64,000 nucleotides of DNA, from the IMG/VR virus record IMGVR_UViG_3300025861_000004; one strand, given 5' to 3'. Below, one piece after another: positions 44,981 through 45,956 of the stretch. Within the stretch, counting starts at the first letter, position 1. Each line of letters starts with the position of its first letter. This stretch comes from a virus. Its lineage: Duplodnaviria > Heunggongvirae > Uroviricota > Caudoviricetes. The translations under genes were made by a program, and so were the position numbers. Below the pieces are notes generated by a model. The model did no database searches. It worked only from the letters and a program-made list of their open reading frames with translations, and was not told the origin of the DNA.

Positions 44981-45268
44981 ATGAGCAACACACCAGACCA
45001 CTCGGTAGCAAACGAAGTGATGAGCCGCCTCATCCAGCGCGCGATCGGGCTGTCCCGCGAGCGCGGGTTGAGCGCGGAGGCTCTCAACCAGGGTGGGTGG
45101 AAGACCTGCCTGGATGACGCCTTCGACCTCATTGACCACGCACCATTCGCGGACCGGGAGGCCCTCTCGACGGCCTTCTCGGCGGCGGTGGACGCGTCGA
45201 GGGACGCCATGCGGGAGCGGATCGCCCTCCTGCGGGCGCAGGAGGCCAAGGCCGCTACCTCTGCTTGA
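44981..45268 (+). CDS. hypothetical protein
   Basis: Motif TCAGCTCCGATGT plus 24 nt to the ATG. CGACTC lies at -12. Confidence 0.5.
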   Translation: MSNTPDHSVANEVMSRLIQRAIGLSRERGLSAEALNQGGWKTCLDDAFDLIDHAPFADREALSTAFSAAVDASRDAMRERIALLRAQEAKAATSA

Positions 45269-45956
45269 GGTACTTTCCGGGCTCGAAGCCCGGCCGCACC
45301 ATCTTGAAGCGGTGCGTGAGGTACTTGCCGTCGCCCACCTTGAGGTATAGACCCTCTTGGGGGTCGATCTTCGACCAGCTTGACGGTCGACACGCGAGTT
45401 GGGCCAGGTGCTCGTACGTGAGCGCGCGTCGCTCGATGAGCTCGGGCATCGTGAACCCCACCTGCGCGAGGAGCCAGCGGGCTTCAAGCGGGTCGAGGTA
45501 GCGGCCCGCTTCGGGGTCGTAGAGGTCGAAGGCGACGAACGGGCAGCGCTTCACGCGGGCGGCCTCGTAGCGCGTCCCGTGGGTCATGACGAGCCACTCC
45601 CCGCAGACCGCGACCGGGGCGCCGGCGAGCTCCTGGAGGCGACGCAGCTTGTCCGCCTGCTGGTAGGCGTAGTTCCACGCGGGGGCGAACTGCCGCTTGG
45701 CCTCCGTGCGCGCGACGTATCCCTTGCGCAGGATGTGGTCGCGGTTCCGAATGATCACCTGGTCCTCGTCGAGGGTCATCCCGAGGAACGCGCCGTCCAT
45801 CTTCTCCTCAATGGTGAGTCGAGGAGAAGAGAAGATCACCTGCGCGTCCTGCTCGGACGCCACGCAGTCGCCCCGACCGGTGTTCGGCTGGAACGGCAGG
45901 TGAGGGGTCGACGGGAACTCGGGGAGCAGTCTCTTCTCTCTCTCGAACGGGCGCAT
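45255..45956 (-). CDS. nucleotidyltransferase-superfamily polynucleotide ligase-like protein (RNA/DNA ligase, KxDG motif)
   Basis: EEKMDGAFLGMTL is motif I KxDG. VAVCGEWLV resembles motif IV and GLYLKVGDGKY resembles motif V. 233 aa, the size of a stand-alone NTase domain like Rnl2. A minus-strand motif ACAGCTCGATGTC sits 24 nt upstream of the ATG. Confidence 0.5.
   Translation of the reverse strand: MRPFEREKRLLPEFPSTPHLPFQPNTGRGDCVASEQDAQVIFSSPRLTIEEKMDGAFLGMTLDEDQVIIRNRDHILRKGYVARTEAKRQFAPAWNYAYQQADKLRRLQELAGAPVAVCGEWLVMTHGTRYEAARVKRCPFVAFDLYDPEAGRYLDPLEARWLLAQVGFTMPELIERRALTYEHLAQLACRPSSWSKIDPQEGLYLKVGDGKYLTHRFKMVRPGFEPGKYLKQR

Follow-up and report, generated by a model that had tools for sequence, protein, structure and literature searches.

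The 64,000-nucleotide stretch analyzed here (the window), which comes from the IMG/VR record IMGVR_UViG_3300025861_000004 of a tailed phage (Caudoviricetes), carries on its minus strand a gene for a 233-residue protein that we predict, from its sequence and modeled fold, to work like an RNA ligase of the Rnl2 or Rnl5 type. Our preferred reading, to which we assign a probability of about 0.6, is that this protein is a minimal ATP-dependent RNA ligase of a huge phage-like genome, formed by a bare nucleotidyltransferase domain, which reseals RNA breaks bearing 5'-phosphate and 3'-OH ends. Both the class of enzyme and the phage strategy are known, and they appear here in an uncharacterized minimal architecture.

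The ligase gene is real and conserved. In a window of 66% GC, where spurious open reading frames (ORFs) are numerous and overlap the ligase ORF in all frames, its GC contents at the first, second and third codon positions (0.67, 0.43 and 0.90) give the codon-position signature of real genes. Comparison with L104, a relative of 91% identity that comes from a different sample, yields 0.27 synonymous (dS) and 0.05 nonsynonymous (dN) substitutions per site, and the resulting dN/dS of 0.19 indicates that the protein is under purifying selection.

Membership in the covalent nucleotidyltransferase and ligase superfamily, which the original prediction had read from short motifs, is upheld by profile comparison. 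The Pfam family RNA_ligase (PF09414) matches residues 47-219 along positions 3-170 of the 171 in the profile with 73 bits against a cut-off of 27 (E 4.4e-20), and PHROG 548, 'RNA ligase', matches as well (E 1.4e-8); NCBIfam and PADLOC returned no match for the protein. The nearest solved protein by sequence is the Naegleria gruberi RNA ligase NgrRnl (E 2e-4 with the single sequence, 8e-9 with a profile of 121 sequences), the match being limited to its C-terminal nucleotidyltransferase domain and starting at residue 164-170 of a chain of 340. An AF2 model of the protein (pLDDT 95.8) gives structural scores of 17.8 against NgrRnl, 16.3 against T4 Rnl2(1-249), 15.8 against REL1, 14.4 and 13.0 against archaeal Rnl3, 12.8 against T4 Rnl1 and 12.4 against Trl1, with DNA ligases at 12.7 or less and capping enzymes at about 8, and Foldseek ranks these proteins in the same order. 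In BFVD the best structural match is an 859-residue Terrestrivirus protein (A0A3G4ZM97, TMq 0.79).

Motifs I, III, IV and V of the covalent lysine nucleotidyltransferases are all present on the nucleotidyltransferase fold (Table 1). Alignments of 33 and of 121 homologues show no variation at K52, D54, W121, Y130, E201, G202 and K218, and a HMMER alignment pairs K52, D54, E120 and E201 with K170, D172, E227 and E312 of NgrRnl (chain index, equal to the native number plus 1), which are the residues mutated in the crystallized PDB entries 6vt0-6vtg. K218 lies outside the printed alignment, and we infer that it is the equivalent of NgrRnl K326. The earlier identification of EEKMDG as the KxDG of motif I, with K52 and D54 at the aligned positions, is thus correct, and two other assignments have to be moved: CGEWLV, proposed as a counterpart of motif IV, is motif III, since E120 aligns with E227, and LKVGDGKY, proposed as motif V, is the tail of the motif IV sequence EGLYLK, since E201 aligns with E312, the true motif V being RFKMVR. 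The N-terminal part of the protein carries a family signature, LPEFPxTPHLP followed by D30, that is at least 90% conserved and whose core, FPxTxHL, is common to the fusion proteins and the bacterial operon clade described below.

The strongest argument that this module joins RNA ends is its fusion, in other members of the family, to RNA end-healing domains. Five proteins (P0232, P0239, P0245, P0249 and P0238) combine 2H-SAK, a PTP-SAK/DSPc phosphatase and an AAA_33 P-loop kinase with a C-terminal RNA_ligase; P0223 and P0252 join a kinase to the ligase, and P0219 and P0226 carry, in some order, AAA_33 and two RNA_ligase stretches. The architecture that Pfam names 'Swiss Army Knife' (2H-SAK, PF22547; PTP-SAK, PF22784; AAA_33; RNA_ligase) is a complete heal-and-seal RNA repair kit. 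Its ligase modules belong to the same subfamily as the window protein: phmmer finds them at E 1e-14 to 1e-17 over query residues 7-227, and they align with it end to end, from the FPRTxHL signature through motif V, at 29-36% identity. The window protein itself is a single domain without the 2H phosphoesterase, dual specificity phosphatase (DSP) and P-loop kinase of these proteins, and no such domain is encoded elsewhere in the window. A literature search turned up no biochemical work on the ligase module of the Swiss Army Knife proteins. Many stand-alone homologues are labeled 'atypical dual specificity phosphatase' by JGI, a name for which the fusion architecture would be the simplest explanation.

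A second context is found on bacterial chromosomes. At 70 of 80 bacterial loci from many phyla (L019-L098) three closely packed genes run in the same direction, mostly with 4-nt overlaps, and encode in order an ABC ATPase of about 467 residues (AAA_15/AAA_21/DUF3696), a protein of about 176 residues and the ligase homologue, of about 230 residues. At one locus (L015, 4054-6690), which lies in a defense island among BREX and Ppl genes, the first two genes of the trio match the PADLOC models HEC-03B (E 4e-128) and HEC-03A (E 2e-29); HEC-03 as listed in PADLOC comprises these two genes only, and the trio ligase matches no PADLOC model. The protein of about 176 residues begins with VVDTNV, has invariant Asp, Glu, Asp and Asp positions and gives sub-threshold PIN_3 matches in 10 of 28 sequences, features that make it probably a PIN-like nuclease; a profile of the HEC-03A-like proteins matched no solved structure. 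None of the three genes encodes a healing enzyme. The trio may be an uncatalogued three-gene defense system of a 'cut and reseal' kind. Its ligase is likewise a stand-alone protein, of the same subfamily as the window protein and with the same motifs, at 28-35% identity; it differs in being chromosomal and embedded in an operon within defense islands, whereas the phage gene is a solitary one with a start motif of its own.

By the mechanism we propose, K52 would attack ATP to form ligase-(lysyl)-AMP, the AMP would be transferred to the 5'-phosphate end of an RNA, and the 3'-OH would attack the adenylylated end and seal the break; the residues that serve these three steps in NgrRnl are all present. 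We favor direct sealing of 5'-phosphate/3'-OH breaks because no healing domain or enzyme is found in the protein, in the window or in the bacterial trio. Among the Pfam-labeled called genes of the window there is no kinase, phosphatase, 2H, RtcB or RlaP, and no ORF with coding GC at third codon positions (GC3) in the window has a Walker A motif, which bears out the earlier remark that no kinase or phosphatase partner is visible there. Ends of this type are left by metal-dependent PIN, Toprim and HNH nucleases of host defense. That they can be sealed directly is plausible from the case of P2 OLD, an ABC-ATPase-coupled Toprim nuclease that leaves 5'-phosphate/3'-OH ends on tRNA (PMC12445682), because the T4 ligases reseal a single nick of this type in tRNA with no end healing (PMC12445682) and because the bacterial trio has no healing enzyme. 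The repair of tRNA by T4, in which Rnl1 and Pnkp act against the anticodon nuclease PrrC, likewise uses a phage-encoded ATP-dependent RNA ligase, and both ligases are presumed to counter RNA-cutting defenses of the host; a kinase/phosphatase beside the ligase, as in that heal-and-seal system, is absent from the 64-kb window, the genome itself measuring at least 331 kb. Through resealing, tRNA or other RNAs needed for translation would stay functional while the phage infects the cell. The original prediction had made the protein a candidate tRNA-repair enzyme: a role in RNA repair gains support from the fusions to 2H, DSP and kinase healing domains, and tRNA as the target is a guess, one possibility among others.

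What sets the protein apart is its architecture. With 46 residues before motif I and 15 after K218 the protein is too short to contain an accessory domain and equals an isolated adenylyltransferase domain, as its size had already suggested. The six structurally characterized families of ATP-dependent RNA ligases (Rnl1 to Rnl6) each combine the nucleotidyltransferase domain with a clade-specific flanking domain, and DNA ligases all carry a C-terminal OB domain (PMC7261155). The Rnl5 enzymes, NgrRnl (PDB 5cot) and DraRnl of Deinococcus radiodurans, are about 20% identical to the window protein and have an N-terminal OB domain of about 125-165 residues with an important part in adenylylation and nick sealing (PMC1807946, PMC7261155); the residues that precede motif I in the window protein are too few for such a domain and bear a different signature, and the AF2 model contains no OB fold. 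The nucleotidyltransferase domain of T4 Rnl2 (1-249, PDB 1s68) and the trypanosome enzyme REL1 are about 18% identical, and the C-terminal domain of Rnl2/REL1, helical and following motif V, is absent. We place the protein outside both the Rnl2 and the Rnl5 families because the accessory domain that defines each was looked for and is missing.

The close clade is virus-associated, as its members lie on huge viral contigs and have no close cellular match. Thirteen metagenomic contigs, the longest of 278 kb, carry the identical protein; neighboring genes of the window occur on contigs of up to 331 kb, and relatives at 40-65% identity on contigs of 343-693 kb, IMG/VR viral contigs included. An alignment-based search of IMG/VR gave five relatives; relatives at 40-47% identity lie on its contigs of 343 and 479 kb. 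When the single protein was used as an exact pattern, no IMG/VR match came up. Among published genomes of huge phages, tblastn gave matches of 40% in LR756511, 29% in LR756502 and 28% in LR745206; a megablast comparison of the 12 kb surrounding the gene with GenBank phages gave no match. In 185,579 bacterial and archaeal species, each represented by one genome, the close clade was not found, the best match being at 35%. An exhaustive phmmer search of 1.84 billion representatives, clustered at 50% identity, returned 876 relatives at E of 1e-3 or less, mostly of 225-250 residues. One of the larger homologues (P0124, 608 residues, 48% identical to the window protein) has an intein with a LAGLIDADG homing endonuclease just past motif I, near query residue 58. 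RNA ligases are frequent in jumbo phages, where they have been interpreted as tRNA repair enzymes (PMC7824862), and the gene content of the window fits a huge phage.

Several points weigh against a complete, self-sufficient RNA ligase of a phage. Every structurally characterized RNA ligase family needs its flanking domain (PMC7261155): T4 Rnl2 deprived of its C-terminal domain still forms ligase-AMP and seals a pre-adenylylated nick but does not carry out complete nick sealing, and DraRnl deprived of its N-terminal domain loses adenylylation (PMC1807946). A ligase-like protein encoded beside the HD-Pnk of Runella adenylylates itself and joined none of the 3'-OH/5'-phosphate substrates on which it was tested (PMC6097658). 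Only a fraction of the genome has been seen, so healing enzymes may lie elsewhere in it, and since the neighborhood is not conserved between the window and the relative at 65% identity there is no operon to back a pathway. Evidence for the viral nature of the window is indirect; no structural gene was identified in it, and PHROG scans of ten of its other proteins gave almost nothing. Our literature search found no biochemical or structural study of the subfamily, but it lacked the main survey of RNA repair, and an earlier computational description is possible.

The same requirement for accessory domains in Rnl2 and DraRnl (PMC1807946), and the same behavior of the Runella protein (PMC6097658), would be expected of an incomplete ligase, one that adenylylates itself but depends on a partner in trans for substrate recognition and 5'-adenylylation, or that acts on unusual ends such as a 2'-phosphate. 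The family offers a candidate for such a partner: in the huge viruses whose ligase is about 45% identical, the ligase stop codon overlaps the start codon of a Cys-rich ORF that comes next (L008, 7717-8163; L011, 7710-8204), and in P0071 the corresponding module is fused to the C-terminus of the ligase, which suggests a nucleic-acid-binding module supplied separately. Its pattern, CPFCG...PEIVK...GYYCxTC...CxCLPPxxHW, indicates that it may be a zinc-binding partner in substrate recognition. The window, however, has no copy of it, the family consists mostly of stand-alone proteins whose gene neighbors vary, and no domain follows the ligase module in the Swiss Army Knife fusions either, so the module seems complete. 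We regard an incomplete ligase as unlikely, though worth keeping in mind.

A ligase for nicks in DNA or at RNA-DNA junctions, acting in phage replication or repair and perhaps working with RNase H in primer removal, is a poorer candidate still. An RNase H gene does lie close by and is adjacent in the 91%-identical relative too, and Rnl2- and Rnl5-type enzymes seal duplex nicks whose 3'-OH strand is RNA (PMC7261155). Against this, the OB domain of the ATP-dependent DNA ligases is missing, DNA ligases score below RNA ligases in structural comparison, the RNase H gene is convergent and not a conserved neighbor, and the fusion partners of the family are RNA-healing domains.

The bacterial trio raises another possibility, that the phage gene is a captured defense component which mimics or replaces the ligase of a HEC-03-type trio and serves to neutralize this one system, either by binding to its components or by reversing the cuts that it makes, instead of being a repair enzyme of general use. 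The consistent third place of the homologue in the trio, whose first two genes match HEC-03B and HEC-03A at a locus in an island with BREX and Ppl, would suit such an origin, as would the N-terminal signature and the catalytic residues, all of which the phage and bacterial clades have in common. Yet identity between the clades is only 28-35%, and the phage clade has a six-residue insertion of its own (ILRKGY..T.AK) and RFKMVR as motif V where the bacterial clade has RAKLVR, differences which mean that any capture was not recent; HEC-03, moreover, is only a candidate system for which we found no published mechanism. Specific capture is a distinctly improbable account of the gene. A capping-type enzyme that uses GTP, or a nucleotidyltransferase modifying a target other than RNA, has in its favor that capping enzymes belong to the same superfamily and that JGI calls many homologues 'atypical dual specificity phosphatase', and it is scarcely credible.

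The preferred reading of a minimal RNA ligase can be extended, as a rather unlikely proposal, to the family as a whole: the accessory-free protein would be a complete ligase, the phage clade would be dedicated to anti-defense, and its bacterial sister would be the third component of HEC-03-type systems. The phage clade could then reverse the RNA nicks made by ATPase-coupled, metal-dependent nucleases with no end healing. A stand-alone adenylyltransferase is the form that models of ligase evolution postulate as ancestral.

The start of the ligase gene coincides with a sequence motif that recurs throughout the window. CAGCTC-N18-(T/C)CGA(C/G)-N8-ATG occurs in 24 copies with an identical register, always of 39 nt from CAGCTC to the G of ATG, against 0.03 expected from Markov simulations, and a longer form begins CAGCTC(CGATCC). 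Nearly all of the ATGs in these copies are the starts of ORFs with coding GC3, and upstream of the ligase gene in L104 the register is the same with a diverged spacer. As an observation, then, the statement that the gene is driven by a motif of the element is sound, given the copy at its start codon and the 23 others, and the fixed distance from motif to ATG suggests a phage-specific promoter that would give leaderless or near-leaderless mRNA. A scan for sigma-70 promoters around the gene found no site, and the palindrome TGTAGGTACA upstream of it is not repeated beyond chance.

Table 1. Coordinates of the ligase gene, its motifs and other features (positions in the window unless a locus is named)
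Feature	Position	Strand	Remarks
Ligase coding sequence, nucleotidyltransferase domain only, stop included	45255..45956	-	233 aa + stop
Start-linked promoter-like motif CAGCTC-N18-TCGAG-N8-ATG, ending on the ligase start codon	45954..45992	-	24 copies; register kept in L104
N-terminal family signature LPEFPSTPHLP, aa 11-21	45894..45926	-	P15, T17, H19, L20 at least 90% conserved in 121 homologues
Motif I EEKMDG, aa 50-55	45792..45809	-	K52, predicted AMP-accepting lysine, and D54 invariant
Motif III CGEWL, aa 118-122	45591..45605	-	W121 invariant; G119, E120 at least 90% conserved
Motif IV QEGLYLK, aa 200-206	45339..45359	-	E201, G202 invariant
Motif V RFKMVR, aa 216-221	45294..45311	-	K218 invariant; R216, V220, R221 at least 90% conserved
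Further start-linked motif copies, examples	19514-19552, 33004-33042, 44945-44983, 61662-61700	+	
RNase H	43905-44780	+	About 0.5 kb from the ligase; convergent
Peptidase_M23-NUDIX hydrolase fusion	46227-47249	-	Directly upstream of the ligase, same strand
tRNA-Ile	7896-7971	-	Unusual anticodon AAT
PTH2	21748-22146	-	
tmRNA, full-length	56024-56383	+	Rfam 162 bits; tag ANDNSVRLAA
DDE transposase with SWIM finger	41144-42487	+	Inside the transposon-like element, which also has helix-turn-helix (HTH) genes
Transposon-like element	37082-42905		5.8 kb; perfect 16-nt terminal inverted repeats
Seven tandem copies	14447-16006		210-nt period; 93-96% identical
Bacterial trio, example at locus L019	3074-4447, 4447-4992, 4884-5666		

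The window consists mostly of ORFans and also has tmRNA, tRNA, PTH2, NAPRTase, AlkB-like, RNase H, NUDIX, GmrSD_N and methyltransferase genes. A conserved operon of the phage clade was considered and rejected, because the ligase has one set of neighbors in the window, another in the 65% relative and others in those at about 45% identity. RNase H stays next to the ligase in the 91% relative. The M23-NUDIX fusion is unusual and is kept in that relative; as a 5'-end-processing partner of the ligase it was likewise rejected, because it is not beside the ligase in the 65% relative and a PAPS-reductase gene lies between the two in the 91% relative. The tRNA-Ile, tmRNA and PTH2 genes together make up a translation-rescue set carried by the element. 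The suggestion that the ligase complements this set finds no support, its sole link being presence in the same window at distances of about 10 to 38 kb.

Two features of the window are of interest in their own right. The transposon-like element, whose end repeats read GGCTTTGCATCAAAAA, is absent from L104, and on contig L012 it appears to occupy another site in the opposite orientation (window position 36719 is joined to 42905 reversed); it seems to have moved recently within the phage population. The tandem copies occupy the one part of the window that is low in GC (0.55); GC and AT skew are strong there (14-16 kb).

RNA ligases are already known as tools of phages against RNA-cutting defenses, and the presence of one in a huge phage is expected. 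The missing end-healing partner suggests a repair of 5'-phosphate/3'-OH breaks, with ends of the type that the Toprim, PIN and HNH nucleases of newly reported defense systems produce, and a ligase of this kind would offer an experimental handle on whether phages undo the damage done by such nucleases. In bacteria, the fixed position of the homologue behind an ABC ATPase and a PIN-like protein suggests a third, ligase, gene, so far uncatalogued, for the candidate system HEC-03. If active alone, the window protein would be the smallest natural RNA ligase, and would bear on how RNA ligases recognize their substrates, on the stand-alone ancestor that has been proposed for them and on their use as enzyme tools.

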